Made by a program: the position numbers and the translations under genes
Assembly: GCF_000300075.1 (NCBI RefSeq)
Contig: NC_018677.1
Location: forward strand, 30,001-62,000
Reading direction: 5' to 3'
Source: Candidatus Saccharimonadota bacterium
Lineage (GTDB): Bacteria > Pseudomonadota > Gammaproteobacteria > Johnevansiales > Johnevansiaceae
DNA length: 32,000 nucleotides
In this document: positions 1 to 32,000 of the stretch, piece after piece
Layout: every line of letters begins with the position of its first letter
Position numbering within the stretch: position 1 is the first letter of the stretch
The notes under the pieces: model-generated
Told to the model about the DNA's origin: nothing
Seen by the model: only the letters and a program-made list of their open reading frames with translations
Database searches by the model: none

Positions 1-37
1 AATTGTGGTTAGGGGTTGTATAAAGTTTTTTTTATAG

Positions 38-155
38 GAAAAAGGGTGTGTATAATTATGGTTTTATGAGGTGTTTGTAAGAAGTAATATAAGAAAGGTA
101 AAGAGAAAAAAAGAAATGTAGTATAAAAGAAAAAAGGGTTTGTATAATAATGGTT
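38..155 (+). repeat. Imperfect direct repeat pair of about 26 nt (38-63 and 129-155)
   Basis: The two copies are gaaaaagggtgtgtataattatggtt and gaaaaaagggtttgtataataatggtt, spaced 91 bp apart. Confidence 0.6.
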
Positions 156-599
156 AAATGCTGTGTTAGGTAAAAGAGAGATATTTGTTTTTGGTAGAGT
201 GATGAGAAGGTTAGTTAAAATGTATTAGATGTTGTTTTGTTTAACATTTGTGGTAAAAAATAGATGAGTAGTTAAAAGATAACTGATAGATGTGGTATAT
301 ATATGAATTGTTTTAAAGTTAAGTACATAAAATTATTAATTGTTAATGGTATTAGGGGTATGCGTTTTGTTGAATATGTCTTATTAACTTAATTAAAGGT
401 TAAATTTTAGCTTAGATGTTTTATTTGTCTATTATTTAGCGATAACAGGCATTATTGAGTTATTTTCGGTATAGGTAAAGTAAATGTATAATCATATTAA
501 AAATATAAATTAGATGTTATGATTAATAGTTGATTAAATAGAATATAGATAGAGTGGTGTTATTGGTATTAATGGAATAATAGTAAGATTAGTATACAG

Positions 600-708
600 G
601 TTATATGTAAAAATGGAAGAGTCGGATAGGTTGTCAAAAAAAATAAGAGAAGTTATATAAAAATGGAAGAGTCGGATAAGTTGTCAAGAATATAAGAGAT
701 ATTATATG
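600..708 (+). repeat. Tandem duplication with a unit of about 50 bp, roughly 2 copies
   Basis: The sequence taaaaatggaagagtcggata[g/a]gttgtcaa occurs at 608-637 and 658-687 (29/30 identical). The downstream halves have diverged and carry a 1-nt indel. Confidence 0.8.
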
Positions 709-822
709 AAAAAAAGTAAAGATATTCGGCAATATAAGTTTAAAAAAACAAGTAAAGTCGTACAGTTTTACTAATAGAATAAAATTAAAATCATAAAATA
801 AACAAAAAAAAAAGAAATAAAT

Positions 823-3194: not shown

Positions 3195-5340
<2,146 letters not shown>

Positions 5341-8193: not shown

Positions 8194-10454
<2,261 letters not shown>

Positions 10455-10674
10455 TCACAATAAAAACATCTTACCATTAACACCTCTTTAAACATCAACA
10501 CCTCATAATATAATAACAGTTTGTACCTACATAACGAAATAAAAGATCATACAGCATAATTAAAGTAAGCTAAAAAGTCTCATAAAAATAGGCAAAAAAT
10601 ATAACACAGAAAAAAAACAAAAAAATATAGTAATAAAAAACATAAATATAAAAGAGAGTAGACTTGGAATTCAT
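10455..10674. other. 220-bp A/C-rich spacer inserted between atpD and atpC inside the atp operon
   Basis: The spacer has no ORF. It shows the same two-part composition as the large spacers (A/C/T-rich, then A-rich). Confidence 0.8.
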
Positions 10675-11103
10675 ATGAACAGTATTCAATGTGATATTAT
10701 GAGTATAGACTGTTTAATCTTTTCAAAAAAAATAAAACAAATAACAGCAATTGGTACGGAAGGGGAATTAGGCGTTTTATCAGGACATACCCCATTTATA
10801 ACACAATTAAATTCAGGTCCTTTAATAATTACACATATTAATAATAAGAAAGAAATTTTTTATTTAGATGGTGGTTTAATTGAAGTTGAATCAAATATGA
10901 TTTCATGTTTATCTTATTCTATTATTAAAGCTAATGAGATTAATGAATATGAACTAACTAAAAATATTAATGAAGCTAAAGTTTTAATTAAAGAAAAATC
11001 ATCAACAATAAATTATACACGCGCAATTGCAGATATATCTTTAGCACATTCTCGCTTACGTACTTTAAAACAATTTAAAACTACATTAACTAACAATGCT
11101 TAA
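10675..11103 (+). CDS. atpC: F0F1 ATP synthase subunit epsilon
   Basis: The protein is 142 aa. GTEGELGVLSGHTPFIT and YLDGGLIEV align with E. coli AtpC (GSEGELGIYPGHAPLLT, YLSGGILEV). Confidence 0.92.
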   Translation: MNSIQCDIMSIDCLIFSKKIKQITAIGTEGELGVLSGHTPFITQLNSGPLIITHINNKKEIFYLDGGLIEVESNMISCLSYSIIKANEINEYELTKNINEAKVLIKEKSSTINYTRAIADISLAHSRLRTLKQFKTTLTNNA

Positions 11104-11160
11104 CATAAACTAAAATATATACAAAAAATGAAAGACTAAACCGTGTAAGGAAAAAAGTAA

Positions 11161-12180
11161 ATGAATTTACGTAATAGGAATCTTTTAAGCTTAATGAATC
11201 ATACTAAAGAAGAAATCAATTATTTATTAAATCTAGCAAGTTATTTAAAAAAGTCAAAATATATAGGTAATGAATATCCTAGATTAAAAGGTAAAAATTT
11301 AGCTTTGCTTTTTGAAAAACCATCAACTAGGACTCGGTGTGCTTTTGAAATTGCAGCTAAGGATCAAGGTGCTAATGTAACTTACATTGATTCTAACTCT
11401 TCTCAACTTGGAGCAAAAGAAACTATTAAAGATACAGCAAAAGTATTAGGTCGTATGTTTGATGCAATTCAATATAGAGGTTTTAGCCAAAAAATAATTG
11501 AAGAGTTAGCAAAAAATTCAGGTATCCCGGTTTTAAATGGATTAACAAATGAATTTCATCCAACACAAGTTTTAGCTGATGTATTGACTATGTTAGAGCA
11601 TAGTAACAATAAATCTTTTAATAAAATAAAATATGTTTATTTAGGTGATGCACGTTACAACATTGGAAGATCTTTATTGTTAATTGGTGCAAAACTTGGA
11701 ATGGATGTACGAATTGCTGCTCCTAAACAATTTTGGCCAGAAGAAAAATTTTTTATATTTTGTAACAACATAGCAAAAAAAAACAATTCAAAACTACTTT
11801 TAGTTGAAGATCCTTATCTTGCTGTAAAAAATGTAGATTTTATATACACGGATGTTTGGGTTTCTATGGGAGAAAGCGAAGAGGTATGGTGTGAAAGAAT
11901 TAATTTTCTTTCAAAATATCAAATAAATAACGAACTTATAAAACATACCAATAATTTTAAAGTTAAAGTAATGCATTGTTTACCCTCTTTTCACAATACT
12001 GAACCATTTGTTATAAATAACTTATTTAAAAAACATAAGCTTATAAAAAACAATCAAACTTTATTGAATGGTTTTGAAATTACTGATGATATTTTTGAAT
12101 CTTCATTTAATATTTCTTTTGATCAAGTTGAAAATAGAATACATACAATCAAAGCTATTTTGGTTTCTACGTTGAGTTAA
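11161..12180 (+). CDS. argF: Ornithine carbamoyltransferase
   Basis: The protein is 339 aa. It has the carbamoyl-phosphate motif [13 protein letters not shown], and the HCLPSFHN ornithine-binding motif (E. coli ArgI HCLPAFHD). Confidence 0.93.
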
Positions 12181-12420
12181 CCCCAAACTACTATAACTTT
12201 AATCAATAACTATTTTAACAACCTCTTTTAACACTTCTCTACTTTACAACTACTTTATTATTACCTACAACAACAAACAATTGTCAAATAACATAATAGT
12301 ATAAAAAACAGAAATAGACCTCTAATAATAAAGCCATCCTCTAAAAACAATATAACACATAACAACAACAACTATGCTTAAATACAATAACAAAAATCAT
12401 CTAACAGATAAAAACTCTAA

Positions 12421-12500
12421 CAACAAACCTCACCTCTAAAATCTTAAAAGCAACATCAAACAACATACCTCACCTCTAAAATCTTAAAAGCAACATCAAA
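12421..12500 (+). repeat. 40-bp tandem duplication, 2 copies with 1 mismatch
   Basis: The sequence caaca[a/t]acctcacctctaaaatcttaaaagcaacatcaaa occurs at 12421-12460 and 12461-12500. Confidence 0.9.
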
Positions 12501-12654
12501 TAACTAACAGATAAAAAAAACCATCTTAAAACTTTAAAGCAACTTCTTTTTAAAAACCATCAAACAACAAAAAATAATAACTATCCTCTAAAAAATAATC
12601 AAAAACCTCTACATAACAACAAATAATATATAAAAAACAACATATTACTTCTAA

Positions 12655-12752
12655 CCAACAACCAACAACCAACAACCAACTACCAACTACCAACTACCTA
12701 CTACCTACTACCTACAACCTCTAACCTAACAACTCTAACCTCTAAACTCTAA
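12655..12752 (+). repeat. Heptanucleotide array with stepwise variant blocks
   Basis: Read in 7-nt register, the array is (CCAACAA)3 (CCAACTA)3 (CCTACTA)2 CCTACAA CCTCTAA CCTAACA ACTCTAA CCTCTAA ACTCTAA. Confidence 0.9.
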
Positions 12753-13336
12753 TAACTAAAACTCTAAACAAATAACAATTTTAACATCTAATAAATAAAC
12801 CTACAACCTAAAAATATAACCATTTTATTTTAACATCTAAACTCTTACCTCTTTAACATCTTTAAATAAACATCTACAAAACAACAAATAACCTCTAACG
12901 TTTCTAAAAAACCAATCTCCAATTAACATCAAACAACCTCTTACACAGAAATAAGTAACATCTAACACATAACAACATAAAAAGAAAAAGATCTAGCAAA
13001 TTTATTATAAAAACATAACTAACCCTCTAACAAAAAAAAACATAAATAAATAAACAACAAAACTAATAATCAATAACAACAAACCTCTAACACCTAATTA
13101 TTTAACAATTAACAATATTTAAGCATAAGTTGTATTACATAACAAAAACACAAAACAATATTTAATAAAATTATAACAAATAAGAATTGAAATAATTAAT
13201 AATACAACAAACTTATAAAAAAAGAAGAAGGTAAAACAGCTAACAAATAGTTATAAAAAATAACAACAAACGACTAACAAAAAAAAAGAAATAACAAAGA
13301 ATAAACAAAAAGCAAAAAATAAAGAGGTAGTAACAA

Positions 13337-13448
13337 ACCTAAAACCTAAAACCTAAAACCTCAAACCTAACAACTCAAACCTCAAACCTCAAACCTCAAA
13401 CCTCAAACCTCAAACCTCAAACCTAACAACTCAAACCTAAAACCTAAA
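13337..13448 (+). repeat. Heptanucleotide array of 16 units with a nested, near-symmetric block structure
   Basis: The array reads (ACCTAAA)3 ACCTCAA [ACCTAAC AACTCAA] (ACCTCAA)6 [ACCTAAC AACTCAA] (ACCTAAA)2. Confidence 0.9.
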
Positions 13449-13754
13449 AAACAAACATCTAACATCAAACATCAAACAAATAAACTCTAAATAACAAAAA
13501 AAGAACATAAAAACTAAGAGTAAACACTAACAAAAAAAATATAACGCATAAAAAGAAAACAAAAGCTAAAACAACAGACATCTAATATAAAACATATAAA
13601 GCTAAAGAGAAACAAACGGTTGTATAAAAAGAAAATAAACATAACACATAACAGAAAAAAGTAGTAACGGCGCGGGAAAGTTTGTAAAAAAAAAAACGAA
13701 AAAAAAACACAATAATAAAAATAAGAAAGCAGTTTAAATAGGTATTTTGCTGTA

Positions 13755-13759
13755 GAGGT
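13755..13759 (+). promoter_or_regulatory. Shine-Dalgarno GAGGT, 5 nt upstream of the leuD ATG
   Basis: The sequence gaggt lies at 13755-13759 and the ATG at 13765. Confidence 0.6.
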
Positions 13760-13764
13760 TTAAA

Positions 13765-14391
13765 ATGGAAAAAATTATTAAGCACAAAGGATTAGTTGTA
13801 CCTATAAATAGATCAAACATAGATACTGATTTAATAATTCCTAAGCAATTTTTAAAAGCAATAAATAGTAGTGGATTTGGTTTAAATTTATTTGATGGAT
13901 TGCGGTATATTGATGAAGGTTATCCAGGAAAAAAAAACAGATTAATAAATAAAGATTTTGTTTTAAATAAATCTAGATATAAAGGAGCTAGTATATTATT
14001 AACACGTAAGAATTTTGGATGTGGAAGCTCTAGAGAACATGCAGTTTGGGCACTTAAAGAGTATGGTTTTAAAATAATTATAGCGCAAAGCTTTGCAGAA
14101 ATATTTTATAATAATGCATTAAAAAATGGTATTCTAATTATAACGGTCAAAAAAAATTTGATAAAGGATCTGTTTTTATCTGTTTGCAAAGAAAAAGGTT
14201 ATATGGTAAATATAAATTTACCAAAACAAATATTATATAATAAAAGTGGAAAAAAGTTTAAGTTTACAATAGATCCGTTTAGCAAATACTGCTTAGAAAA
14301 TGGGTTAGATGATATAGGGATTACATTTAAAGAAATAAAACTTATTAAAAAGTTTGAACATATTCATAACAAAAAAAATCCTTGGTTATAA
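13765..14391 (+). CDS. leuD: 3-isopropylmalate dehydratase small subunit
   Basis: The protein is 208 aa. It has NFGCGSSREHAVWAL, the canonical LeuD motif, and N-terminal VVPINRSNIDTDLIIPKQFLK. Confidence 0.95.
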   Translation: MEKIIKHKGLVVPINRSNIDTDLIIPKQFLKAINSSGFGLNLFDGLRYIDEGYPGKKNRLINKDFVLNKSRYKGASILLTRKNFGCGSSREHAVWALKEYGFKIIIAQSFAEIFYNNALKNGILIITVKKNLIKDLFLSVCKEKGYMVNINLPKQILYNKSGKKFKFTIDPFSKYCLENGLDDIGITFKEIKLIKKFEHIHNKKNPWL

Positions 14392-14397
14392 AATAAT

Positions 14398-15483
14398 ATG
14401 AAAAATGAAATTTTGATTTTACCTGGTGATGGTATAGGGCCCGAAGTGATCAATGAAGCAGTTAAAGTAATTAAAGTTTTGCAAAAAAAGAAATTAATTA
14501 ATTCAGTTATTCGTTATGCGAAAATTGGCGGCTATGCAATAGATACAGTTGGTTTACCACTTCCAAATGATACATTAAAAGCAGCAAAAGCATCTCGCTC
14601 AATTTTATTAGGTGCTGTAGGAGGTCATAAGTGGGATAATATAAAAGACTTTAATAAACGCCCGGAATATGGATTGTTAAAATTACGTAAATCATTAAAG
14701 TTTTTTGCTAATTTAAGACATACTTGTTTTAATCCACAAGTATTATCATCAAGCATAAAATCAGAAAAATTATCAAATGTTAATATTTTGCTTGTAAGAG
14801 AATTAAGTCAAGGTATTTATTTTGGTAAGCCAAGAGGTGTTTTATATAATAAATATTTTTTACGACATGGTTATAACACATCAAAGTTAGATGAAAAAGC
14901 AATACGTAGAATTGGTATAATAGCTTTTGAAATTGCTAAAACCCGTAAAAAAAAAATTTGTTCAGTAGATAAAGCTAACGTTCTAGAAGTTTCAAGGTTA
15001 TGGAGAGAAATAATTTCTGATTTAGCCAAGTCATATCCGGAAGTAAAAGTTTCTCATATGTATGTTGATAATGCCGCTATGCAAATTATATTATCACCAA
15101 AAATCTTTGACGTAATTGTTACTGGAAATATGTTTGGAGATATCATCTCTGATGAAGCGGCTAATTTAACGGGATCAATAGGTATGTTGCCTTCAGCTTC
15201 TATAAATTCAATAGGACAATCTTTATTTGAACCTTGTCATGGAAGTGCTCCAGATATTGAAAATAAAGGAATTGCTAATCCTATTGCTACAATTTTATCA
15301 GTTTCAATGATGTTACATTTTTCCTTACAAAAACCTTTATTATCTAAATATTTAAATGCTTCTATAAGTAATGTTTTGAAGAAAGGATTTCGTACAGCAG
15401 ATATAAAATATACTGGAATAAAAATAGTTTCTACAAAACAAATGGGTGATTTAATTATTGAAGAATTTGAAAAATTAATTTAA
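14398..15483 (+). CDS. leuB: 3-isopropylmalate dehydrogenase
   Basis: The protein is 361 aa. It has LPGDGIGPEV, NMFGDIISDEAA and EPCHGSAPDI motifs. Confidence 0.96.
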   Translation: MKNEILILPGDGIGPEVINEAVKVIKVLQKKKLINSVIRYAKIGGYAIDTVGLPLPNDTLKAAKASRSILLGAVGGHKWDNIKDFNKRPEYGLLKLRKSLKFFANLRHTCFNPQVLSSSIKSEKLSNVNILLVRELSQGIYFGKPRGVLYNKYFLRHGYNTSKLDEKAIRRIGIIAFEIAKTRKKKICSVDKANVLEVSRLWREIISDLAKSYPEVKVSHMYVDNAAMQIILSPKIFDVIVTGNMFGDIISDEAANLTGSIGMLPSASINSIGQSLFEPCHGSAPDIENKGIANPIATILSVSMMLHFSLQKPLLSKYLNASISNVLKKGFRTADIKYTGIKIVSTKQMGDLIIEEFEKLI

Positions 15484-15508
15484 ACAAAATTATTAGGAAA
15501 ATCAATTA

Positions 15509-16600
15509 ATGCTTAAAATGGGTTTCGTAGGTTGGAGAGGTATGGTAGGTTCAGTTTTAATTCAACGTATGCTTGAAGAAAATGATTTTAATTATATTGA
15601 ACCTATTTTTTTTTCTACAACTAAATTTGGTAAAACAGGTCCTATTTATGCCACAAAGATACAAAATGCTTATGATTTAAACAAACTAAAAAAATTAAAT
15701 GTCATTATTACTTGTCAAGGAGGGGATTATACAAATCGGATTTATAAGAGTTTACGTAATACTGGTTGGAACGGTTATTGGATTGATTCATCAAGTAAAC
15801 TTAGAATGGATAGTAATTCAATTATTGTTTTAGATCCTATAAATATTAAAATTATAGAACAAAGTTTATATTTAGGCATAAAAAATTTTATTGGAGGAAA
15901 CTGTACAGTCAGTTTAATGTTGTTAAGTTTGGGTGGTTTATTTCAAAATAACCTTATAGAATGGATTACTTCTATGACATATCAAGCAGCTTCAGGAGCT
16001 GGATCAAAGCATATGATTGAGTTATTAAATCAGATGCGTATACTTGGTAATATCGTTAAGAAAAATAACAATGCAAAATCAATTTTAGAAATAGATTCAA
16101 AAATTACTAAGTTTATGGGTAAGCTACCAATAAAAAATTTTGGAGCTCCTATAGCTGGGAGTTTAATGCCTTGGATAGACAAAAAGATGGATAATGGACA
16201 AAGTAAAGAAGAATGGAAAGGAAATGTTGAAACTAATAAAATATTAGGTTGTTCTCCTAATACAATTAAAATAGATGGTATATGTGTGAGAATTGGTGCT
16301 ATGCGTTGTCATTCTCAAGCATTTTTTATTAAGTTGAAAAAAAATATTCCTATAAAGGATATAGAATCAATAATTAAAGAACATAATCCTTGGGTAAAAG
16401 TTATAAAAAATAATAGTACTCAAAGTTTAAAAAAATTAACACCAGCAGCAGTAACAGGTACTATGTCAATACCAATAGGGAGATTACGTAAAGCTAGTAT
16501 AGGAAGCAAATTTATAACTGCATTTACAGTAGGAGATCAACTATTATGGGGGGCAGCAGAACCTATAAGAAGAATGCTAAAAATACTCGTTAATAGATAA
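15509..16600 (+). CDS. asd: Aspartate-semialdehyde dehydrogenase
   Basis: The protein is 363 aa. It has the N-terminal GFVGWRGMVGSVL and the active-site GGNCTVSLML. Confidence 0.96.
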   Translation: MLKMGFVGWRGMVGSVLIQRMLEENDFNYIEPIFFSTTKFGKTGPIYATKIQNAYDLNKLKKLNVIITCQGGDYTNRIYKSLRNTGWNGYWIDSSSKLRMDSNSIIVLDPINIKIIEQSLYLGIKNFIGGNCTVSLMLLSLGGLFQNNLIEWITSMTYQAASGAGSKHMIELLNQMRILGNIVKKNNNAKSILEIDSKITKFMGKLPIKNFGAPIAGSLMPWIDKKMDNGQSKEEWKGNVETNKILGCSPNTIKIDGICVRIGAMRCHSQAFFIKLKKNIPIKDIESIIKEHNPWVKVIKNNSTQSLKKLTPAAVTGTMSIPIGRLRKASIGSKFITAFTVGDQLLWGAAEPIRRMLKILVNR

Positions 16601-16603
16601 CTT

Positions 16604-17428
16604 ATGACTTTGTTTTATAATTTAAATTTTATTTATGGACGTATAGTTTTAGGTGTTGAATATATTGGTTGTGAATATTTTGGTTGGCAACTACTTAAAC
16701 ATTTTAATACAATACAACAACAAATAGAAGAAGCTTTAAAGTATTTTACAGGACATTCAATTACTTTAAAAGCTAGTTCGCGAACAGATTCTGGGGTACA
16801 TGCAATAAAGCAAATAGCGCAGTTTGATACATTTATATGTCGTAGTCAAAAAGCATGGGTATTAGGTCTAAACTCTAAATTACCTAGTGATATACGAATT
16901 CGTTGGGTCGTTAAAGTATCTGATAAGTTTAACTCGCGTAAAGCAATTGCTAGAAGATATAACTATTTAATCTATAACAAGTTTGTACATTCAGCTTTAA
17001 TAAGGAATACTAGGATTTGGCAGAAAAAACCTCTAAATATAAAGAAAATGCATATTGCTGCTCAAAGTTTGGTTGGAAAACATGATTTTACATCTTTTCG
17101 TTCTTCAAGTTGTAAATCTATAAATACAATTAAAATTTTACATTTTATTGAAGTTCGTAGCTATGGTCCAATAGTTATAATTGATATACAAGCAAATTCA
17201 TTTTTACATCATATGGTAAGAAATATTGTTGGAGTATTAGTAGACATAGGTAAGTGTCGTCGTTCAGTAAAATGGTGCAAAAATTTATTATTAAAAAAAA
17301 ATCGCAAAGAAGCAGGTAAAACAGCAACAGCAAAAGGATTATATTTGGTTGATGTTCTATTTAATAAAGAATTACAAGATCAACTACCAACAGAATATAT
17401 AGGTTCACATCAGTTATTTTATATTTAG
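16604..17428 (+). CDS. truA: tRNA pseudouridine(38-40) synthase
   Basis: The protein is 274 aa. It has the catalytic SSRTDSGVHA motif and FLHHMVRNIVG. Confidence 0.93.
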   Translation: MTLFYNLNFIYGRIVLGVEYIGCEYFGWQLLKHFNTIQQQIEEALKYFTGHSITLKASSRTDSGVHAIKQIAQFDTFICRSQKAWVLGLNSKLPSDIRIRWVVKVSDKFNSRKAIARRYNYLIYNKFVHSALIRNTRIWQKKPLNIKKMHIAAQSLVGKHDFTSFRSSSCKSINTIKILHFIEVRSYGPIVIIDIQANSFLHHMVRNIVGVLVDIGKCRRSVKWCKNLLLKKNRKEAGKTATAKGLYLVDVLFNKELQDQLPTEYIGSHQLFYI

Positions 17429-17448
17429 AAAAATGGAGTATATTTAAA

Positions 17449-18084
17449 ATGAAAACTAAACGAGTAAAAGTAAAATATTGTGGAATCACTAATAAAGAAG
17501 ATCTAAAAGATGCTGTAAATTCTGGAGTTGACGCACTAGGTTTTATACTTTGGCCTGGTAGTAAACGTTCTGTTGATATTCATCGGTTAATTCTTTTATC
17601 TACTAAAGTTCCTGTTTTTGTTTGTCGTGTTGGTGTTTTTTTTAATCAAAGCTATGACTTTATATCTTCTTGTACTCCTTTTTTGGATAGTTTACAATTT
17701 CATGGTAATGAACATTCTAAGTTTTGTAATTTATTTAAGAAACCATGGATAAAAGCATTACGTATGTCTCATAATATAGACCTACTGATGGAATCAGAAA
17801 TTTACAGCAAAGCATATGGGTTACTTTTAGATACTTATTGTGCATGTTTACCAGGAGGTACAGGAAAAAGTTTTGATTGGTTTAAAATAAAACAAAACCT
17901 TAACAATAATATAATTTTAGCAGGTGGATTAAATTCTTTAAATGTAAATAAAGCTATAAAAATAGTTTTACCATATGCCGTAGATGTTGCTAAAGGTATT
18001 GAATTATCAGAAGGTATAAAAGATCATTATAAAATGAATGCTTTTGCTATAGCCGTTAACAAAGCTAATATATTGTTTTTTTAG
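17449..18084 (+). CDS. trpF: Monofunctional N-(5-phosphoribosyl)anthranilate isomerase
   Basis: The protein is 211 aa. It has VKYCGIT, LQFHGNE and ILAGGLN motifs. The truA-trpF adjacency matches Pseudomonas. Confidence 0.9.
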   Translation: MKTKRVKVKYCGITNKEDLKDAVNSGVDALGFILWPGSKRSVDIHRLILLSTKVPVFVCRVGVFFNQSYDFISSCTPFLDSLQFHGNEHSKFCNLFKKPWIKALRMSHNIDLLMESEIYSKAYGLLLDTYCACLPGGTGKSFDWFKIKQNLNNNIILAGGLNSLNVNKAIKIVLPYAVDVAKGIELSEGIKDHYKMNAFAIAVNKANILFF

Positions 18085-18119
18085 GCAAACTTTTTATTAA
18101 AAATAATAGGATAGACACA

Positions 18120-18722
18120 ATGGGTTTATTATCTGGATGCAATGGTTTAATATTAGGTGGAGCTTTAATTATAGTTATAGGAGCACAAAATGCATTTGTT
18201 TTAAATCAAGGATTACGTGGTAATTATCCTTGGATGGTTGCATTTATATGTGCATTGTGTGATGTAATATTAACTGCAACCGGTGTTGCAGGACTTTCAG
18301 TTTTTATTCAAAACCATAAAGATTTTATTATTATAGCACGTTGGATAGGTATATTTTTTTTAATATTACAATCTATAAAAGCGTTTGTACGTATGCGTGA
18401 ATCAGAACAACTACAACTTCTAAAAAATTGTTATAAAGGAAGATTAAGTATTTTTTTTTATACCCTTGCTATTACATTACTTAATCCACATGTTTATTTT
18501 GATACTTTATTAATGTTAGGTACTATTGGGGCATCTCAGGCTTGTCCATTTATGTTTGTTTTAGGCGCTGGATTAGCTTCTTTTTTATGGTTTTTTAGTT
18601 TAATTTTTATAGCTAGAACATTTAAATTATTACTAGCGTCTTCTAAAGTATGGAGATTATTGGATTTAATTACGGGAATAATTTTGTTATTTGTCGCTTG
18701 GCAATTACTACTACCTTTTTAA
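18120..18722 (+). CDS. argO: LysE/ArgO-family basic amino acid exporter
   Basis: The protein is 200 aa with about 6 TM segments. GAQNAFVLNQGLRG, LNPHVYFDT and ASFLWFF align with E. coli ArgO (GPQNAFVMNQGIRR, LNPHVYLDT, ASFLWFF). Confidence 0.85.
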   Translation: MGLLSGCNGLILGGALIIVIGAQNAFVLNQGLRGNYPWMVAFICALCDVILTATGVAGLSVFIQNHKDFIIIARWIGIFFLILQSIKAFVRMRESEQLQLLKNCYKGRLSIFFYTLAITLLNPHVYFDTLLMLGTIGASQACPFMFVLGAGLASFLWFFSLIFIARTFKLLLASSKVWRLLDLITGIILLFVAWQLLLPF

Positions 18723-18732
18723 ATAAAAATAT

Positions 18733-19998
18733 ATGTTAGATATTAAATTAATTTGCAACAATTTTAATAATGTTGTTAAAAAATTAGCCAGCCGTGGTTA
18801 TGAATTAGATATTAAAAAAATTAAAACGTTGCTAGAAATACGCAATAAGTTTAAAACTAATACTGAAACTTTACAAAATAAACGCAATATTATATCTAAA
18901 ACTATAGGAAACAACAAGAATTATATATTAAAAGTACAAAAGTTATTTGTAAAAGTAAAAAAAATAAATCATAAACTTCATAAAAATATTTTATGTTTAG
19001 AAGTAACCAACAAAAAAATTTATAATATTTTATTTAAAATACCAAACTTACCACATAATAGTGTACCAATTAAAACCAATATAGAGATAATACGTTGGGG
19101 AGTTCCTAAATCATTTAACTTTTCCATACGTGATCATATTAAGATAGGCTTATTAAATGGTGATATTGATTTTGAATTAGCAACTAAAATAACTGGTTCT
19201 AATTTTACTTTAATACGTGGAAATTTAGCTAAATTACATCGTGCTTTAATACAATTTATGTTAGATAAGCAAATTAATGATCATGGTTATGAAGAAATGT
19301 ATGTGCCATATATAATTAATAGAACTTCTTTAGTAGGTACAGGTCAATTACCTCAATTTAATAAAAATGTTTTTGAACTTGAAGGAGAAAATGAATATTT
19401 TCTTATTCCTACAGCTGAAGTCCCTTTAGTTAATAGTGTCAGTGGTAAACTTTTCAATGTTAATGATTTACCAATTAAATTAACAGCACATTCTCCTTGT
19501 TTTAGAAACGAACCTGTATCTTATGGAACTGATTCTCGTGGTATGTTGAGACAGCTACAGTTTGATAAAATAGAATTAGTTCAAATAGTACATCCTGAAA
19601 AATCTTATGTTGTATTAGAAGATATGACTAACCATGCTGAAGAAATTTTAAAAGCATTAAATTTGCCTTATAGAGTTATAAGTTTATGTAAGGAAGATAT
19701 TAGTTTTTGTGCATCTAAAACTTATGATATAGAAGTTTGGATTCCTAGTCTTGAAACTTATTTAGAGATTTCATCGATATCTAATTGTGAGGATTTTCAA
19801 GCAAGAAGAATTAAAACTAGATTTCGTATTAATAAAGACAAAGCAAAGCCTAAATTTGTACATACACTTAATGGCTCTGGACTAGCTGTTGGTCGTTGTT
19901 TGTTAGCCGTATTGGAATATTATCAAAACGAAGATGGCTCTATTACAGTTCCAGATAGTTTGCGCTCTTATATGTGTGGTATTAACCGTCTTTATTAG
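18733..19998 (+). CDS. serS: Seryl-tRNA synthetase
   Basis: The protein is 421 aa. It has an N-terminal coiled-coil arm and class II motifs (FRNE, RQLQFDKIELV, TLNGSGLAVGR). Confidence 0.96.
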   Translation: MLDIKLICNNFNNVVKKLASRGYELDIKKIKTLLEIRNKFKTNTETLQNKRNIISKTIGNNKNYILKVQKLFVKVKKINHKLHKNILCLEVTNKKIYNILFKIPNLPHNSVPIKTNIEIIRWGVPKSFNFSIRDHIKIGLLNGDIDFELATKITGSNFTLIRGNLAKLHRALIQFMLDKQINDHGYEEMYVPYIINRTSLVGTGQLPQFNKNVFELEGENEYFLIPTAEVPLVNSVSGKLFNVNDLPIKLTAHSPCFRNEPVSYGTDSRGMLRQLQFDKIELVQIVHPEKSYVVLEDMTNHAEEILKALNLPYRVISLCKEDISFCASKTYDIEVWIPSLETYLEISSISNCEDFQARRIKTRFRINKDKAKPKFVHTLNGSGLAVGRCLLAVLEYYQNEDGSITVPDSLRSYMCGINRLY

Positions 19999-20576
19999 TT
20001 CTTTTTTTTTTAGTTTTTGCTGGTTTTTTCTTTTAACCCTTACTACTACATATACCCCTAACATAAAAACACAATTTACCACTTTTTGCTAATAACTACA
20101 CTACTTTTACAAATACATAACTATTTAACAACACCTACTGTTATATTTTTATATTCTTAATAACTTTTAACTATAATTAAACAATAACTAATAGTTAACA
20201 ATATAAGCTATTAATTAACATCACAAAAGCATTAAACCTAAGTGCTAAACACAACTACATAACAAACTTTTTAACACAATATTCCATTTAATAATACAAC
20301 TACAATTCATAATTTTTACAAAACACAAACAATTAAACTGCTAACACATAAACACATAAGCATTTATACTATCAGCTATAAAAAATAAAACAAAACTACA
20401 TAACTTTTAAGAACAAACAAACAAATGATTTTTAAGCTAACAGCTTTTAATCAAATAACAACTTTTTACATAACTAACCCTCTAACAAAAAAAACATAAA
20501 ATATAAGTCATTACAATATTTTGTATATACTACTAAAACATAACAACACAACAAGAACAGCAAAAAAAACAAAAAA
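19999..20576. other. 578-bp non-coding spacer between serS and tRNA-Arg. It begins with a T-rich 40 nt and is then G-poor and A/C/T-rich.
   Basis: The spacer has no ORF. It shares a 33-34-nt module with the argF-leuD spacer (20468-20500 versus 13013-13046). Confidence 0.8.
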
Positions 20577-20650
20577 GCGCCTGTAACTCAATTGGACAGA
20601 GTATTTAACTACGAATTAAAGGGTTGGAGGTTCGATCCCTCTCAGGCGTA
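20577..20650 (+). tRNA. tRNA-Arg, anticodon ACG
   Basis: I folded the cloverleaf by hand. The acceptor stem is gcgcctg/caggcgt (one G-U pair). The D stem is actc/gagt. The anticodon stem is tttaa/ttaaa with loop ctACGaa. The variable loop is 5 nt. The T arm is ggagg-ttcgatc-cctct. The discriminator is A. It is 74 nt long and CCA is not encoded. Confidence 0.92.
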
Positions 20651-20659
20651 TTATAGTTT

Positions 20660-22240
20660 CTAAAAAAAATGAAGTTGTAAAAATAGGTTTGTTATATTGA
20701 GTTTTTGTACAAGAAAATTAAATAAATATCTTTTATAATGATTTGGTAAACTTTGTTTGGTTGTTTGCCCAAAAACAACAATAATTATAGGATTTATATT
20801 TATTTGTTTTGCTAATAATAATTTAAAATTATGCTTGTTTTTAAAGAGGGGTTTTTTTTTTATTGCTAAATTTAGCAAGTTTGTTAAAAATTTAATAGAC
20901 CAAAATTTTGTCTTTAAAAACACAAATAAGTCAAGAGAATTAAAAATGGAAACGAAATTATAAAGATATAAAGCAGAAATAAAATGCATGGTTAAAATTT
21001 TTGTAAATTGATATAACTTAGAATACAACAACTGATGTATAAACATAATTTGTTTGTTATTGATTGCATCACATTTATTAAAAATTAAAAATAAATGTTT
21101 TCCTGAAAATAAAATCTGTTTTAAAAGAAAGATATCTTGTTCGAAAAAGCCCCTAGTTGCATCGATAACATAAAAAACAATATCATAGTGATGTATAAAC
21201 TTACTAAATAGTTTAAGTTGTTTTATAGTGTTAGTTATTCCTTTTGTATCTGTTAACAGAAATAAATGATTTTTATAGAGGATTTTAATCGTTATATTTT
21301 CTCGTGTAGTACCAGGTTGATGATTAATAATTAAACGCGTTTCTTTTACTAAGCTATTTATTAGTGTTGATTTCCCAACATTGGTTTTACCAATAATACA
21401 TATATTTGTAAGATTACTAGTTTTATGATTGTTGTTTTGTTTATGCTTATTTTGGTTAGTTGTTATTTGTTTAAAGGCTTTGAGTTTAATAGGATTTTTA
21501 TTAATAGGTTGTTTTATGGTTGTTATTTGTTTAAAACTTTTGATAATATTTTTATGTTTGCTGTTTATTAATAGATTGTTATTGGTTATTTTATGATGTG
21601 TGTTTTTGATTTTGAGAGTTTTGTTTTGTGTATGCTGGTTAGTTTTTATTATGTTAGTTGTTATTTTAAGATGTGTGTTGTGAAGTAAAAAGGGTTTAAG
21701 TGTTGTGTTTTGTGTTTGATTTATATAATTGGTTTTATTATCATTAGACAAAATACCAGAAATTCTTGTTAACAAATGTTTTATATTAATTTTGTGTAAA
21801 GCAGAAATAAAAAGTGTTTGATCGTCATAATTTAAATAATTAAAAGAACACGGTATCATATAATCAATTTTGTTAATAATAAATATTATTGTTTTATTTT
21901 TTTTTTGTAAAAACTTAATGATTTTTTTGTAAAAAGAATCTAAGTGACTGTAAGCTGTTATTAAAAACAAAATGATATGTGCTTCTTGAATAGCTATTTT
22001 TGTTTGTTTATTTATACAATAGGTTAGATTGTTTGTTTTATAAGAAAAGAAATCAGTAGAAAGTGCAGCTGTATCTATTAAAGTGCAGTTTTTATTATTT
22101 AGTTGTAATATTCCATACTTTCTATCTCTTGTAAAAAAAGGAATATTGTTTGTTATAGAATCTTTATTTTTTGTTAAGCAATTAAACAATGTTGATTTTC
22201 CTACATTGGTTTTACCAATTATTGTAATAATTTGACTCAT
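20660..22240 (-). CDS. der: Ribosome-associated double-GTPase Der (EngA) with an expanded inter-domain linker
   Basis: The protein is 526 aa. GD1 has GKTNVGKS / DTAA / NKID. GD2 has GKTNVGKS / DTKG / NKCD, starting at about aa 281. A KH-like C-terminus follows. The linker between the two domains is about 114 aa of low complexity. Confidence 0.9.
   Translation of the reverse strand: MSQIITIIGKTNVGKSTLFNCLTKNKDSITNNIPFFTRDRKYGILQLNNKNCTLIDTAALSTDFFSYKTNNLTYCINKQTKIAIQEAHIILFLITAYSHLDSFYKKIIKFLQKKNKTIIFIINKIDYMIPCSFNYLNYDDQTLFISALHKINIKHLLTRISGILSNDNKTNYINQTQNTTLKPFLLHNTHLKITTNIIKTNQHTQNKTLKIKNTHHKITNNNLLINSKHKNIIKSFKQITTIKQPINKNPIKLKAFKQITTNQNKHKQNNNHKTSNLTNICIIGKTNVGKSTLINSLVKETRLIINHQPGTTRENITIKILYKNHLFLLTDTKGITNTIKQLKLFSKFIHHYDIVFYVIDATRGFFEQDIFLLKQILFSGKHLFLIFNKCDAINNKQIMFIHQLLYSKLYQFTKILTMHFISALYLYNFVSIFNSLDLFVFLKTKFWSIKFLTNLLNLAIKKKPLFKNKHNFKLLLAKQININPIIIVVFGQTTKQSLPNHYKRYLFNFLVQKLNITNLFLQLHFF
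21404..21745 (-). repeat. In-frame low-complexity linker expansion of der, made of spacer-like A/C/T-only sequence on the sense strand, including a 60-bp tandem duplication
   Basis: The plus strand of 21421-21720 contains only 5 C in 300 nt, so the sense strand has 5 G. The sequence tgttatttgtttaaa recurs at 21461 and 21521, exactly 20 codons apart, and FKQITT recurs at aa 236 and 256. Confidence 0.85.
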
Positions 22241-23516
22241 AATAAAATATTGATTTCAGAGTGTTTATTAACGGTTTTAAAGCTAATAAGTTTTGTGTTT
22301 TTTTATATAAATCTTTTATAGACACTTTATTCTTTTGAACTTCATTCTCTCCATAAATTAAAAGAATATTTATGTTATTTTTCTTTGCTTTATATATATT
22401 TTTTTTAAAAGATGTATCACAAAAAGTGTTTTGTATAATCAAATTAGGTAATTCATTACGAAGAAACTCTAATAGTTTAATTGATTTAATTATAATAGTT
22501 TTTTTATTTGAAATTGTAATAAAACAAACATGACTTTTAATTTTCATATTAGTTGGAAGTTTATTTGTGGTTTTTAATAACAATATTGTTCTTTCTAAGC
22601 CTATAGCACAACCTATAGCTGGAGTTTTTTTACAATTAAAAAATTTTAATAAATAATCATACCTACCACCAGCACATATAGTATTTTGACTACCTAAAGC
22701 TTTCGTTTTCCATTCAAAAACAGTGCGTGAATAATAATCTAAACCTCTTACTAAGTTTTTATTTATTTTGTATTTGATGTTTGTGTAATTTAAAATCTTT
22801 TTTAAATATTCAAAATGTTTAATAGATTTTTGATCTATATAATCTAATATGTTTGGAGTATGTGTTACTATATATGTTATATTCTTTACTTTAGTATCTA
22901 ATAATCTTAAAGGATTTTTATACATCTTATATATTAGATTGCTATCTAAATAATTTTTAAACTTTTTTAAATACTTGAACAATATATTTGTGTATAATCG
23001 TCTTGATGTTTTTGAACCCAAAGAATTTATTTCTAAATGTAAATATTTTTGCACCCCTAATGCCTTGAATATTCTATTTGTCATTATTATTATTTCTGAG
23101 TCCATCTCTGGACCATGTTTATTAAAACTTTCTACTCCAAATTGATGAAATTGCCTAAACCGACCATTTTGAGGATTTTCATATCTAAACATTGGACCAA
23201 CATACCACACTTTTTGTGTTTGATTTGTCATATGATTTTCTAGTATAGATCTAATTATAGAAGTAGTGTTTTCAGGTCTTAATGTTAATTGTTTTTGCTT
23301 TTTATCCTTAAACGTATACATTTCTTTTTTTATTATATCTGTAGTTTGTCCTAAAGAGATGGTAAATAAATTAGTTTGTTCAATAATTGGTGTTCTAATC
23401 TCTAAATATAAATGCTGATATAAAATCATTTTAATTTTATTTTCTATATATTGCCAAATAACAGATTTTTTAGGTAGAATATCATTCATACCTTTAAGAG
23501 ATTTTATTGTTATCAT
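22212..23516 (-). CDS. hisS: Histidyl-tRNA synthetase
   Basis: The protein is 434 aa. It has the N-terminal KGMNDILP, plus FRYENPQNGRFRQFHQFG and GGRYD class II HisRS motifs. Its 3' end overlaps the der start by 29 nt. Confidence 0.95.
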   Translation of the reverse strand: MITIKSLKGMNDILPKKSVIWQYIENKIKMILYQHLYLEIRTPIIEQTNLFTISLGQTTDIIKKEMYTFKDKKQKQLTLRPENTTSIIRSILENHMTNQTQKVWYVGPMFRYENPQNGRFRQFHQFGVESFNKHGPEMDSEIIIMTNRIFKALGVQKYLHLEINSLGSKTSRRLYTNILFKYLKKFKNYLDSNLIYKMYKNPLRLLDTKVKNITYIVTHTPNILDYIDQKSIKHFEYLKKILNYTNIKYKINKNLVRGLDYYSRTVFEWKTKALGSQNTICAGGRYDYLLKFFNCKKTPAIGCAIGLERTILLLKTTNKLPTNMKIKSHVCFITISNKKTIIIKSIKLLEFLRNELPNLIIQNTFCDTSFKKNIYKAKKNNINILLIYGENEVQKNKVSIKDLYKKTQNLLALKPLINTLKSIFYYESNYYNNW

Positions 23517-25451
23517 AAACTATATCTGTTATATTGTTTTGTTTAAACAAAGATTATATTTACTTAAATACTAAATAAGCAATATTAAAACTACATTGCT
23601 AACTAGATTTAAATAATAGAAAATACAATATGTAAAAAAACTCTAATAATAAAACAATTTTTTTAACACACACAAATAATCTACTCAACGCCATTTTACA
23701 ATCTTAATTTAATTCTTTCCTTTCTTATACAAACATAATTCTTTTTAACAAATAACAATTACCACTTCTACATACAATACAATTTTCTTTTCTTTTAACC
23801 AACACCATTAAACCACAACATTTTTATTTAATAACTTTTTAACAACAAAACTTCTACTAATACTACTGTTTAATAAGCCATGATTTTTATTTTCTTTTCT
23901 TTCTTTTTTTATCATTTATCACAAACAACAAATTCTTAACCAAATACATACTTGAGATTGCTAACACATAACATAATTATCATACAAAAAACATCCTTCT
24001 GCTAACATTTGCTAACTTATAACACAAAACACAAACAACAACATGTTACCATCCATTTATTTTTTTTATATAACATATTTTTTTCATTCTACACTTAACC
24101 TTTAAACATAGTTTAGAAAAAATATAACTACACAAGTCTTATATATCAAACTAAACTAATATAATATAACATAACATAACATATAATAAATGAAATACAC
24201 AAACCAAAAATTTAACAAAAATCACTAATACACAATCAAAAAAAAAAACTATATATAATAACAACATACAGCTAAAATATATACAAAACAAAAAAAACAA
24301 GAAAGAATATACACGGTTTAGTAAAAAGCAATAACGATATAAAAATTTAAAGAATAAACAAAAACACTGAACAATAACACAATTTTAAAGATATTTTTTT
24401 TAAGTACAACACAATTTTTAATAAATAATATAAAACTATTAGTTTTACACAACCACTTACAAACTAGTTATAAATTAGTTTTTCAACTTACATCAATACC
24501 AATACAACCATCTCTTTAGCAATACTACATAGTGTTGTATTTATTATTTACATTATTTATAATTAGCATAACAAGTTACGATATTAAGCATTAAACAAAC
24601 AACATCAAAAATAACAACAATCCTAAATTATTAAATATACTTCAAAATTCACAACTCTTTTAAGTACAAAAAATTCTATACATTAATCATAAAACATAAG
24701 ACATAAGAACTATTTAACAACCATAACCACAATTCACAAAACATAAAACATAAGACATAAGAACTATTTAACAACCATAACCACAATTCACAGCAAAACA
24801 AATATTTTTATAATACATATAACTCAAATATGTTAACGAAATTAAGAAAGAACAGATAACACCTAACAACTAAAAAAAGACAAAACAGCAAATAACAAAT
24901 CTAAACGGACATAAAGCATAACATATAACCCAACTTAGCAAAATAAAATACAATAGAGAATAAAAATACAGCAATTAAATAAATTCAGCGTTAATCAAAA
25001 CATAAAAGAAGAACACATACAGCAACTAAATAAAAAGATTAAACTAAAACTCTAACATAAAGCAAACACAAACGCACATACAGATAACACAAATACAAAA
25101 CACATAACAACTAATACAATGAAAATAACAGCTAAAAGTTAACACAAAAACTAAAAAACATAAAATATAAGAACGAAGACATATAAAATAAAAAAGCACA
25201 AAACAAGGAGTAAACAAGCTTATATAACAAAAATATATCCTCTAACACATACCTACAAAACTGCCAACTAACATCAAACATAAACACATAGATCTTAAAA
25301 TAGAATACATATAACTCAAAACAAAAAAAAAACAATAACAAACAGAAAAAAAGTTAAAGCGAAAATATATAAAATCAAAAAAAACAAAAATCAGAAAACT
25401 AAAGAAAACGAATAACACAGAACAAAAACAAAAATATAAAGGACGAAAATA
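23517..25451. other. 1.94-kb non-coding spacer between divergent hisS and lon. The plus strand is G-poor and A/C/T-rich, and becomes A-rich and T-poor from about 24840.
   Basis: There is no plus-strand ORF. The minus-strand track ORF at 25132-25341 is an artefact. The spacer contains repeated gctaaca motifs, an (ATAAC)n tract near 24166 and a perfect 51-bp duplication. Confidence 0.8.
24688..24792 (+). repeat. Perfect 51-bp direct duplication (24688-24738 and 24742-24792) separated by 3 nt
   Basis: The sequence cataaaacataagacataagaactatttaacaaccataaccacaattcaca was read twice with no mismatch. Confidence 0.92.
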
Positions 25452-27776: not shown

Positions 27777-27818
27777 CATATTGTTGATTCTTTTAGTTAT
27801 TTATTAGGTAAATAAAAC

Positions 27819-29657: not shown

Positions 29658-31147
29658 TTTACTTTTTTTTATAAAAAGACTTTACACATTACATTCCAAT
29701 AAATAAAACAAAACAAAACGTAAATAACTATATTTTCATAATTTTTATAAAACAAATCATAACAAAGTTCATAGTTTTTATAAAACAAATCCCAACAAAA
29801 TCCATAGCTTTTTCGTTAGAAAAAAAATTACAAAACAAAGAAATAAATTTTAAATAGAAGAAAAACTTTATATAAACAATTCAACACTTTAAATCTCTTA
29901 ACTAATGATTTTTATCTTATTCAATATAAACATATAAAGATTAAGCTTTATATATAATAGATATATTAACAAACATATTGTTAACCAATATTTAAACTTT
30001 TATTTTTAAACAAAACATCAATTATATATTATTAGTTTAATATATTTTTTTTTGAATTTGATTTGGATTACATAAAGATTTTAACTTGAATAATATCTAC
30101 TAAACTTAAAACTTACTAAACAACAAGTTTTTTATAGACACAACTATTCAAACACTCCATATCTGTTCTATCTTTTCTATTTTTCACATCTAATTTATTT
30201 TTACACAGGAAAATAATAGGCATTTATACTTGTGTACATGTGTTTTTTTTTATCGGTATCGTTAATACGTAATATATGTTTTTAGATATACGTTTAAAAT
30301 AAGTATTTTATATTTTCTTCAAATAACTAATACTAAATATTTTGTTTTTATACAATTAATGTTTTTTTACAAACATATTAATACCTTTTTGTTCAATTTA
30401 TCATTACAAATTCTATTAAATAACAACAAAACCTTATTTTACTTGTATACCGTATGACATATATATTTTTCAAACTATACAATACAAAATACAACTCTTA
30501 TAGTTAGTTAAGTATTAAACAAACAAGTTTAAGCATTTATAATTTTAACAACAAAATTAACTTAACCAATAAATTTAAAAGAAACAACTACTATAAACAA
30601 ACACATTAATCTACTATTTAAACATTACATCCACTACTAACAATTTAACCCTTAACCCTTTTCTACATCTACATTCATTAAACCTACAGCATATTTTACA
30701 TAGTATATACAACCTTCTATATATTAGTAAACTTTACAAGTCTATACAAAAAAGAATAGTTACTATACAGCATACAACTTTAAGCAATAAACAACATACA
30801 GCAGAACCCAATAAATCCATTAACCATACTAATAAAAAAACTGTAATACAAAAGCTAAACAAAAATATCATCTAAAACCATAATAACAAACAAAAAAAAA
30901 TACAACACATAACATAGAAAAAGTAGAAAAAAAAAACAACAAAATAGCATATAGACAAAAAAAAAGAACAGTAAACAGCAAAGAAAAAGAGAAAAATTAT
31001 ACAATACAGAAAAAGATGGTTATATAGTAAAGAAAAAACCATAAAAACACAGAAAGCTAACCATCAAAACTAAACAAAAGACTACGTAGATAAATAGAAA
31101 TATATATAAAAAGTATAAAAAAAATAAGAATATAAGTAAAATTAGAT
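29658..31147. other. 1.49-kb non-coding spacer between ilvD and the miaA pseudogene. It includes an ordinary AT-rich island without skew (about 29900-30480), followed by a G-poor A/C/T part and an A-rich leader.
   Basis: There are no ORFs in the track. Composition changes are visible by eye. Confidence 0.75.
29742..29807 (+). repeat. 33-bp tandem duplication, 2 copies with about 4 mismatches
   Basis: The two copies are tttttataaaacaaatcataacaaagttcatag and tttttataaaacaaatcccaacaaaatccatag. Confidence 0.85.
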
Positions 31148-31949: not shown

Positions 31950-32000
31950 GGTTGTATAATTAGTTGAAATAAATATTACAGAAGAATGGAAAAAAAAATA

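Follow-up and report, generated by a model that had tools for sequence, protein, structure and literature searches.

How can kilobases of intergenic DNA in a bacterial chromosome become almost devoid of one nucleotide on one of the two strands? This question is raised by a 32,000-nucleotide (nt) stretch of contig NC_018677.1 (positions 30,001 to 62,000, hereafter the window), in which the spacer between the genes argF and leuD, at positions 12181–13764 of the window, is nearly free of G on the plus strand. The original prediction, which was made from the letters of the window, drew attention to this spacer and suggested that its composition results either from a strongly strand-specific mutational process acting on slippage-generated repeats, or from selection for inert transcribed filler. 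In the analyses described here the spacer proved to be of repeat origin, to turn over by insertion and deletion, and to belong to a kind of DNA that is restricted to rearranged and expanded lineages of the symbiont Portiera. The strand polarity of this DNA is independent of gene direction, and its skew is absent at neutral codon sites.

The window is identical, in reverse orientation, to CP016304.1, the genome of Candidatus Portiera aleyrodidarum of Bemisia tabaci, the overlaps of 12,394 and 14,182 nt being free of mismatches. Its gene content (ilvA, fpr, the atp operon, argF, leuD, leuB, asd, truA, trpF, a LysE-family gene, serS, tRNA-Arg, lon and ilvD, with der and hisS both on the minus strand) is Portiera-like. 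The origin that the original prediction had named for DNA with such spacers, the Bemisia Portiera lineage with its repeat-rich intergenic regions, was therefore correct, based on this identity and on the published spacers of that lineage (PMC3673631).

The focal spacer contains 849 A, 325 C, 72 G and 338 T. A recount of its first 780 nt (12181–12960) returned exactly the 14 G that had been counted previously, together with 380 A, 193 C and 193 T, and the 360 nt from 12540 to 12899, claimed to contain no G at all, were found to consist of 175 A, 95 C and 90 T. No other G-free run in the window is as long, the next in length being 177, 172, 132 and 126 nt. When both strands were considered, 150 consecutive non-G bases were present at 273 overlapping positions, and at none in 100 dinucleotide-preserving shuffles.

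The supposition that repeats generated by slippage underlie the spacer was supported by tandem arrays, by autocorrelation and by the differences between strains. Tandem Repeats Finder (TRF) identified arrays with periods of 7, 14, 21 and 28 nt in the three-letter DNA, which we refer to as filler, and the autocorrelation of the focal spacer was 0.50 at a lag of 7 nt versus approximately 0.38 at other lags. The lag-7 match was 0.39–0.50 in nine of ten B. tabaci filler blocks, one of them an insertion within the der gene, versus 0.35–0.39 at lags 6 and 8 in most of them; a period of 7 was not found by autocorrelation in the 220-nt atpD-atpC spacer. Among five B. tabaci strains, the focal spacer has nine indel blocks (7, 7, 7, 7, 13, 24, 40, 56 and 104 nt), of which over half are multiples of 7 nt, and all of the inserted DNA is G-free. 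The spacer is 1340–1347 nt long in four strains versus 1584–1591 nt in the window strain. Substitutions among the same strains occupied only 13 alignment columns, several of them beside indels, which is too few for a mutation spectrum.

Portiera orthologues of the locus were gathered by a LeuD search, and comparison with the compact relatives among them revealed that the spacer is lineage-specific. In three compact Portiera lineages, that of Trialeurodes (CP004358) and two more (L140, L141 and L142 among our loci), leuC is located 7–11 nt before leuD. The loci of the compact lineages are 3–5% intergenic with a symmetric composition, and the longest G-free run was 80 nt or less in the two that were measured (L141 and L142). 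The argF-leuD junction is common to B. tabaci Portiera, to a relative with an 88% identical LeuD (ERZ27294174) and to the Portiera of Singhiella simplex, with spacers of 1.3–1.6 kb, 1.5 kb and 2.6 kb, respectively. This junction is a derived rearrangement, the leuC/leuD split that has been published previously (PMC7821994). A LeuC remnant was not found in the focal spacer, as the best tblastn match had an E value of 0.04 over 12 residues. The only part of the focal spacer that aligns with the 88% relative is the final segment of approximately 110 nt before leuD, in which GTAGTAACGG and the GAGGT motif are both conserved; the filler does not align. Because of this conservation we assigned positions 13655–13764 as leader and not as filler, and this segment probably represents a leuD promoter and leader that were created after leuC and leuD were split.

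On the sense strand of argF and leuD, the spacer is G-poor in both the B. tabaci strains (54% A, 19–21% C, 5% G and 21–22% T) and ERZ27294174 (57% A, 17% C, 5% G and 21% T). The spacer of Singhiella Portiera is the mirror image of these, with 25.5% A, 3.3% C, 23.4% G and 47.8% T on the same strand, a C-free run of 427 nt and a period of 5 nt, and a second Singhiella spacer has a C-free run of 755 nt. The period of 5 in Singhiella filler was evident from autocorrelations of 0.50–0.60 versus 0.34–0.35, and its units include AACTT, ACATT and CACTA (L139 6980–9551, 13236–15310 and 17048–20178; L074 2200–6400). A further block on this contig, 8 kb in length, of period 5 and at a distance of 150 kb, is G-poor on its plus strand and has G-free runs of up to 287 nt, such that the two ends of this one 177-kb contig have opposite polarities. 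Filler could not be aligned among the three expanded lineages even though their leuD DNA is 92% and 87% identical, which indicates that the three-letter state is continually regenerated.

Filler is also present in several other parts of the window (Table 1). Five further spacers had been described as consisting of A, C and T only, and this description was right in that these regions are G-poor (3.4–5.3% G and about 19–23% C), but overstated in that none is G-free. Their G/C counts are 53/196 (3195–4190), 5/24 (10455–10560), 18/101 (20040–20576), 54/224 (23517–24840) and 16/70 (30480–30830). A block that had been missed, positions 1–822, mirrors the focal composition with 27 C and 168 G on the plus strand, and its first 160 nt are C-free. 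Another block, likewise overlooked, lies within a gene. The der gene (20660–22240, minus strand) encodes 526 residues, including a linker of approximately 110 residues rich in K, N, T, I, Q and H between the two GTPase domains, and the DNA of the insertion has 100-nt windows with 3% C or less and 18–26% G on the plus strand and a lag-7 autocorrelation of 0.44. In the relative with the 88% identical LeuD, der encodes 519 residues and has a different insertion at the same place. A simple reading can be given for the G-poor sense strand of the der filler: a strand of A, C and T has TAA as its only stop codon, so that only this polarity could stay in frame. No dispersed repeat is common to the spacers of the window, and almost no k-mer of 14 nt or longer recurs between them.

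We compared the filler to sites at which composition should be neutral. At the four-fold degenerate sites of plus-strand genes in the window the composition is 42% A, 45% T, 7.8% G and 5.0% C. The C/G ratio at these sites is 103/160, versus 193/14 in the first 780 nt of the focal spacer. The asymmetry is therefore far beyond ordinary GC skew, as had been claimed, and far from being no stronger than the skew at third codon positions, an outcome that would have reduced it to a replication effect, it has the opposite sign. Ordinary replication-associated GC skew was rejected as an explanation since the four-fold sites have no skew of matching sign or size. In eleven orthologous genes round the junction, four-fold sites in B. 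tabaci Portiera comprise 445 A, 47 C, 72 G and 456 T (44% A, 45% T, 7% G and 5% C) and those in Singhiella Portiera 401 A, 54 C, 88 G and 431 T (41% A, 44% T, 9% G and 6% C). These compositions are alike despite the opposite polarity of the adjacent filler, which runs counter to a strongly strand-specific mutational process.

The filler itself has about 50% A, 20–25% C, 22–25% T and 0–5% G, with twice as much A as T. When pooled and oriented it has 47% A, 19% C, 5% G and 29% T, and the youngest blocks have about 50% A, 25% C, 22% T and 0–2% G. C is thus the outlier at least as much as G, being present at four to five times its four-fold level, while G is mildly low. The possibility that filler is G-free because it is young was rejected, as the correlation of local periodicity with G (rho −0.13) was not significant. 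Local periodicity did have a positive correlation with C (rho 0.35) and a negative one with T (rho −0.39), as expected for C-to-T decay, and filler without periodicity still has 5.3% G and 17% C.

The polarity of the filler was followed along a 48.8-kb composite of the window and its joined flanks, which was used for both the polarity and the spacer analyses. In order along this composite, the spacers upstream of gyrB, between gyrB and glyS, and between glyQ and ilvA are C-poor on the plus strand; those of fpr-atpB, atpD-atpC, argF-leuD, serS-tRNA, hisS/lon and ilvD-hisZ are G-poor; and the last, the sufB-sufC spacer, which is within a single operon and flanked by co-directional genes, is C-poor again. 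Polarity is uniform within each spacer, and there are two flips within the composite. Neighboring spacers had the same polarity in seven cases and different polarity in two in B. tabaci Portiera, and in three and none in Singhiella Portiera (one-sided binomial p of about 0.02). Polarity did not match the direction of the flanking genes, a relationship that had been put forward for checking, as the sufB-sufC spacer of B. tabaci Portiera and the argF-leuD and truA-sohB spacers of Singhiella Portiera are reversed, and the divergent spacers glyQ/ilvA and hisS/lon differ from one another. Together, a polarity that does not follow the genes and the lack of a matching skew at four-fold sites indicated that the filler is not accounted for by replication skew of the ordinary kind or by selection for inert read-through RNA. 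The first polarity switch in B. tabaci Portiera falls between the glyQ/ilvA and fpr-atpB spacers, with gyrB on one side and yidC-mnmE-mnmG-atp on the other. We take these to be genes that flank oriC in free-living relatives, and we regard the proximity as a lead and not as evidence.

Based on these findings, we favor as probably correct the explanation that the filler arises by slippage-made tandem duplication of short G-less units in a Portiera clade depleted in replication functions. Tandem duplication of very short units, through replication slippage or unequal exchange, would build up the spacer. The units, which each contain C and lack G on one strand, are 7 nt long in Bemisia Portiera, whereas those of Singhiella Portiera are 5 nt long. 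The likely setting for such expansion is a clade, that of the Aleurolobini Portiera, reported to be without the Pol III proofreading subunit, the clamp, the clamp loader, the single-stranded DNA-binding protein (SSB) and MutL, the published losses being dnaQ, dnaN, dnaX, holA, holB, ssb, mutL and ruvC (PMC3673631, PMC5322561, PMC7821994). Both growth and turnover would copy existing G-less units, thereby propagating their alphabet and polarity, and substitutions that create G would be the rarest class in an AT-driven genome. The combination could produce kilobases that are G-free on one strand, with one polarity per spacer. Expansion would also have to outrun the decay of C, and in that event C could be kept at 20–25% despite a mutational equilibrium of about 5%.

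Why three-letter units should win is a matter on which we offer hypotheses only. Neither strand of such a unit folds, and these units might therefore be spared the deletions that hairpins mediate when the replisome has no SSB. Another possibility is that slippage varies with the orientation of the repeat toward the fork. The predicted folding energies of the 360-nt run as single-stranded DNA are −2.8 and −3.5 kcal/mol for its two strands, versus −31.3 kcal/mol for coding DNA of the same length and similar GC content. A bolder form of the proposal, which we consider doubtful, is that the three-letter alphabet reflects a replication process lacking SSB, clamp and proofreading, in which only unfoldable duplexes would expand, in steps of 7 or 5 nt, and the C-containing strand would mark the direction of the fork at the time of expansion.

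Several observations weigh against the explanation by slippage-made duplication. The gene losses on which it depends were taken from the literature (PMC3673631, PMC5322561) and not from the window. Neutral DNA in this genome is approximately 88% A+T, so that random seeds for duplication would mostly consist of A and T only, and the consistent presence of two to three C and no G per unit is not explained. The tendency of neighboring spacers to share polarity hints at a regional determinant that is outside the model. In Singhiella Portiera, 17 of 177 singleton variants in a periodic context create G, a count that is confounded by exchange between neighboring units; at equal rates one third would be expected, such that an additional bias against G, or its purging, is possible. 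Lastly, when either strand was compared with shuffles of matched composition, its residual A-T pairing was not reduced (z about −2), so that apart from the alphabet itself nothing points to selection against structure.

Among the alternatives, strand-asymmetric point mutation is the one that survives best, but we consider it unlikely. By this mechanism, a single strand left exposed without SSB would be deaminated (C to T and A to G) toward G+T-richness and its complement would become A+C-rich, and a composition of about 50% A, 25% C, 22% T and 2% G does resemble that of the A+C-rich strand of vertebrate mitochondrial DNA. It would also fit with a polarity that is regionally coherent and switches along contigs, and with the B. 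tabaci switch adjoining genes that presumably flank oriC in free-living relatives. In addition, ssb is reported to be lost (PMC3673631, PMC5322561). However, the four-fold sites near filler have at least as much G as C and about as much A as T, and do so in two lineages with opposite polarity. A decay process cannot produce DNA in which C is at four to five times its neutral level. Furthermore, the polarity switches twice within 49 kb, and most of the difference between strains is due to indels, with substitutions contributing far less.

Selection for inert transcribed filler appears distinctly improbable to us, as does its variant in which the spacers supply Rho-loading (rut-like) sites so that read-through is ignored or terminated. 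For the focal spacer, the predicted properties of the plus-strand RNA were as anticipated: it has a minimum free energy of −0.4 kcal/mol over the 360-nt run, versus −57 kcal/mol for a symmetric sequence of equal GC content, and only 4 start codons and 1 Shine-Dalgarno (SD)-like site in 1420 nt. The gene ends also lacked intrinsic terminators as claimed, with no terminator-like hairpins in 10400–14500 and three in 14501–32000, which is the level expected by chance and none of which is in a spacer. Rho binds RNA that is C-rich, G-poor and unstructured, in line with the variant; for rho, as for dnaA and ung, no mention was found in the Portiera papers and supplements consulted. The claim of structural inertness held for the plus-strand RNA but not for the A/G/U strand, whose RNA folds to −42 kcal/mol, and the opposite strand of the focal spacer has 134 start codons and 26 SD-like sites. 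Moreover, sense-strand RNA that is C-rich, G-poor, unstructured and has few start signals is a property of the focal spacer only. Between the co-directional genes sufB and sufC of B. tabaci Portiera and between argF and leuD of Singhiella Portiera, the sense strand is C-poor and rich in start codons (95 and 148 per kb, respectively), and divergent spacers take either polarity. The sole filler within a gene, that of der, is G-poor on the sense strand as selection would require, but this is more simply attributed to the stop codon constraint described above.

It is very improbable that the spacers are decayed pseudogenes whose composition is a relic of coding sequence. Some spacer parts do have an ordinary composition, and within one of these an 84-codon open reading frame (31327–31581) has a weak match to IPPT (miaA, PF01715). 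This reading frame is probably a pseudogene relic, and it suggests that the spacers mix gene relics with three-letter filler; miaA is listed in the literature among the genes lost in Portiera evolution. The focal spacer, however, is a period-7, three-letter sequence without significant similarity to LeuC, and coding DNA in this genome has more G than C on its sense strand. An assembly or sequencing artifact merits next to no credence. Low-complexity repeats are error-prone, and one of the Portiera genomes was noted by Sloan and Moran to have likely homopolymer errors from 454 sequencing. However, this spacer was recovered with an unchanged composition from two complete genomes that are independent of each other and from several Logan assemblies, with unit-sized indels as the only differences, and it also occurs in two further Portiera lineages.

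Table 1. Filler blocks and associated features of the window, in order of position
Feature	Position (nt)	Strand	Basis or remarks
Opposite-polarity filler	1..822	-	C 3.3%, G 20% on plus strand; right part of 2.2-kb glyQ(-)/ilvA(+) divergent spacer
fpr-atpB spacer	3195..4515	+	G-poor; yidC-mnmE-mnmG here in other strains
atpD-atpC spacer	10455..10674	+	G-poor
argF (ornithine carbamoyltransferase)	11161..12180	+	NCBIfam TIGR00658, 394.9 bits versus cut-off of 280.85; upstream flank of focal spacer
Three-letter filler, decayed 7-nt tandem repeats	12181..13600	+	G-poor, about A54 C21 G4 T21 (%); base counts, lag-7 autocorrelation
40-nt unit, 2.2 copies	12419..12508	+	TRF; 40-nt strain indel in same part of spacer
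360-nt G-less run	12540..12899	+	Base count, shuffles, folding
Drifting heptamer array: AACCAAC, TACCAAC, TACCTAC, AACCTCT, AACTCTA	12653..12791	+	TRF periods 7, 14, 21; direct reading
(CAAACCT), approximately 20 copies	13334..13477	+	TRF period 7, 20.7 copies
leuD leader	13655..13764	+	Ordinary composition, GAGGT ribosome-binding site; aligns with relative having 88% identical LeuD
leuD	13765..14391	+	NCBIfam match; downstream flank of focal spacer
serS-tRNA-Arg spacer	19999..20576	+	G 3.8%, C 18.5%
In-frame filler-like insertion in der linker	~21401..21741	-	G-poor on der sense strand; absent from the original prediction
hisS(-)/lon(+) divergent spacer	23517..25451	+	G-poor over whole length
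Spacer downstream of ilvD	29658..30900	+	Partly G-poor filler, then ordinary-composition DNA

Other features of these loci were identified in the course of the analyses. Scans of the window with Rfam and for tRNAs had the tRNA-Arg at 20577–20650 as their sole match, and the start of der overlaps the 3' end of hisS by 29 nt (22212–22240, minus strand). In the window strain (CP016304) and in JGI PQ2WF, fpr is followed directly by atpB. In CP007563, PBWF and PWF, a yidC-mnmE-mnmG block of approximately 6.5 kb, bordered by approximately 1.0 and 3.1 kb of spacer, is located between these two genes (L001, L004 and L005, approximately 12373–20199). The compact lineages have an RNase_T (PF00929) gene of 226–232 residues (L140 19126–19821, L141 14785–15465 and L142 14301–14999) whose size and position are those expected of dnaQ. 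This gene adjoins sohB in L140 and L141. In L142, in which sohB was not among the genes called, it occupies the corresponding position. No remnant of dnaQ was found in the Singhiella locus, in which the matching side of sohB is occupied by a 2.1-kb three-letter spacer.

These findings are relevant to how such genomes are interpreted. The filler has a strict grammar, three-letter and strand-polar, which is common to lineages whose separation is reported to exceed 70 million years, although their unit lengths differ. Any mechanism must account for this grammar, and it points to an expansion process in preference to point mutation or transcript selection. The filler looks like a by-product of crippled replication machinery and not like a purpose-built inert transcript. 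If the bolder form of our proposal is true, the filler would bear the mark of a degenerate replisome in its sequence and would also preserve, like a fossil, the direction of replication and the inversions of the past. Should polarity follow the direction of the fork, filler could be used to locate the origin and to date inversions in genomes whose GC skew is reported to be unusable; B. tabaci Portiera has been noted to lack a clear GC-skew pattern (PMC5322561). On a practical level, filler will dominate GC-skew plots, gene finders and repeat maskers when these genomes are analyzed.

Of the known systems to which this DNA can be compared, the closest is the same object. Expanded, microsatellite-rich spacers have been described in the Portiera of B. 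tabaci and Singhiella simplex (Sloan & Moran 2013, PMC3673631; Santos-Garcia et al. 2015, PMC5322561, and 2020, PMC7821994), along with a low coding density, a spike of 7-bp tandem repeats, 7-bp indels and a link to rearrangements (PMC3673631, PMC5322561, PMC7821994). Between 30 and 40% of these symbiont genomes is intergenic, with "large, repeat-rich intergenic regions" (PMC7821994). The focal spacer conforms to this description in its location on the leuC/leuD breakpoint, its 7-bp period and indels, and its greater length than the compact counterpart. In term searches of the Portiera papers and in our literature searches we found no statement of the three-letter alphabet, the C enrichment, the polarity of the spacers or the 5-nt period of Singhiella Portiera, and the three-letter, strand-polar aspect of this known kind of DNA is apparently undescribed.

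A search of genome contigs with the pattern AACAA..AACAA..AACA plus 70 non-G bases gave at least 120 matches, mostly to single tandem arrays in unrelated bacteria. Among the matches listed, one Portiera block was present (the 8-kb block of Singhiella Portiera, with 11 matches), and only there were the matches many, spread over kilobases and decayed. G-free runs of 150–300 nt are therefore not unique in themselves, as many arrays in other bacteria have them, notably those of filamentous cyanobacteria. Non-periodic G-free stretches were also seen in two tiny contigs assigned to Pseudomonas: 935 nt (448 A, 187 C and 300 T) at 243–1177 of a 1177-nt P. laurentiana contig (L113), and 302 nt (135 A, 65 C and 102 T) from position 553 of an 888-nt P. 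putida contig (L085). These look like contaminant or chemically converted (bisulfite-type) sequence and not like Pseudomonas DNA.

The short tandemly repeated repetitive (STRR) arrays of cyanobacteria are, like the Portiera filler, intergenic tandem heptamers that often lack G on one strand. The unit AACCAAC at 12653–12680 of the window is also that of an (AACCAAC)n array in Potamolinea, and similar units occur in Stigonema and Microcoleus (cyanobacterial contigs L011, L014, L086, L109 and L114), a likeness that is partly by design as the search pattern forced units of the AAC type. The cyanobacterial arrays are near-perfect and 170–300 nt long, consist of one or two related units with a lag match of 0.85–0.93, and are found in large genomes, whereas the Portiera filler is kilobase-long, decayed and multi-unit, with a lag-7 match of 0.39–0.50.

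Rut sites and "G-less cassettes" resemble the focal spacer in that the RNA of its plus strand is C-rich, G-poor and unstructured, but the polarity rule fails for the other spacers and the Portiera spacers are 10–20 times longer. Telomeric repeats such as TTAGG, TTAGGG and TTTAGGG have units of 5–8 nt with a G+T strand opposite a C+A strand, and form long tracts of one polarity that gain and lose units. The minus-strand units of the Portiera filler, such as AGGTTTG, AGAGGTT and GTTGGTT, are similar to these, although the likeness is no more than an analogy. Unlike telomeres, the filler has neither a telomerase nor a chromosome end, and the Portiera tracts are internal to a chromosome that has been published as circular. 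In animal mitochondrial DNA, an A+C-rich strand has nearly no G at neutral sites, a feature attributed to long single-stranded exposure. The filler is similar in having an A+C-rich strand opposite a G+T-rich one. The mitochondrial skew, however, is present at the four-fold sites of genes, whereas in Portiera those sites are unaffected and the skewed DNA is derived from repeats.

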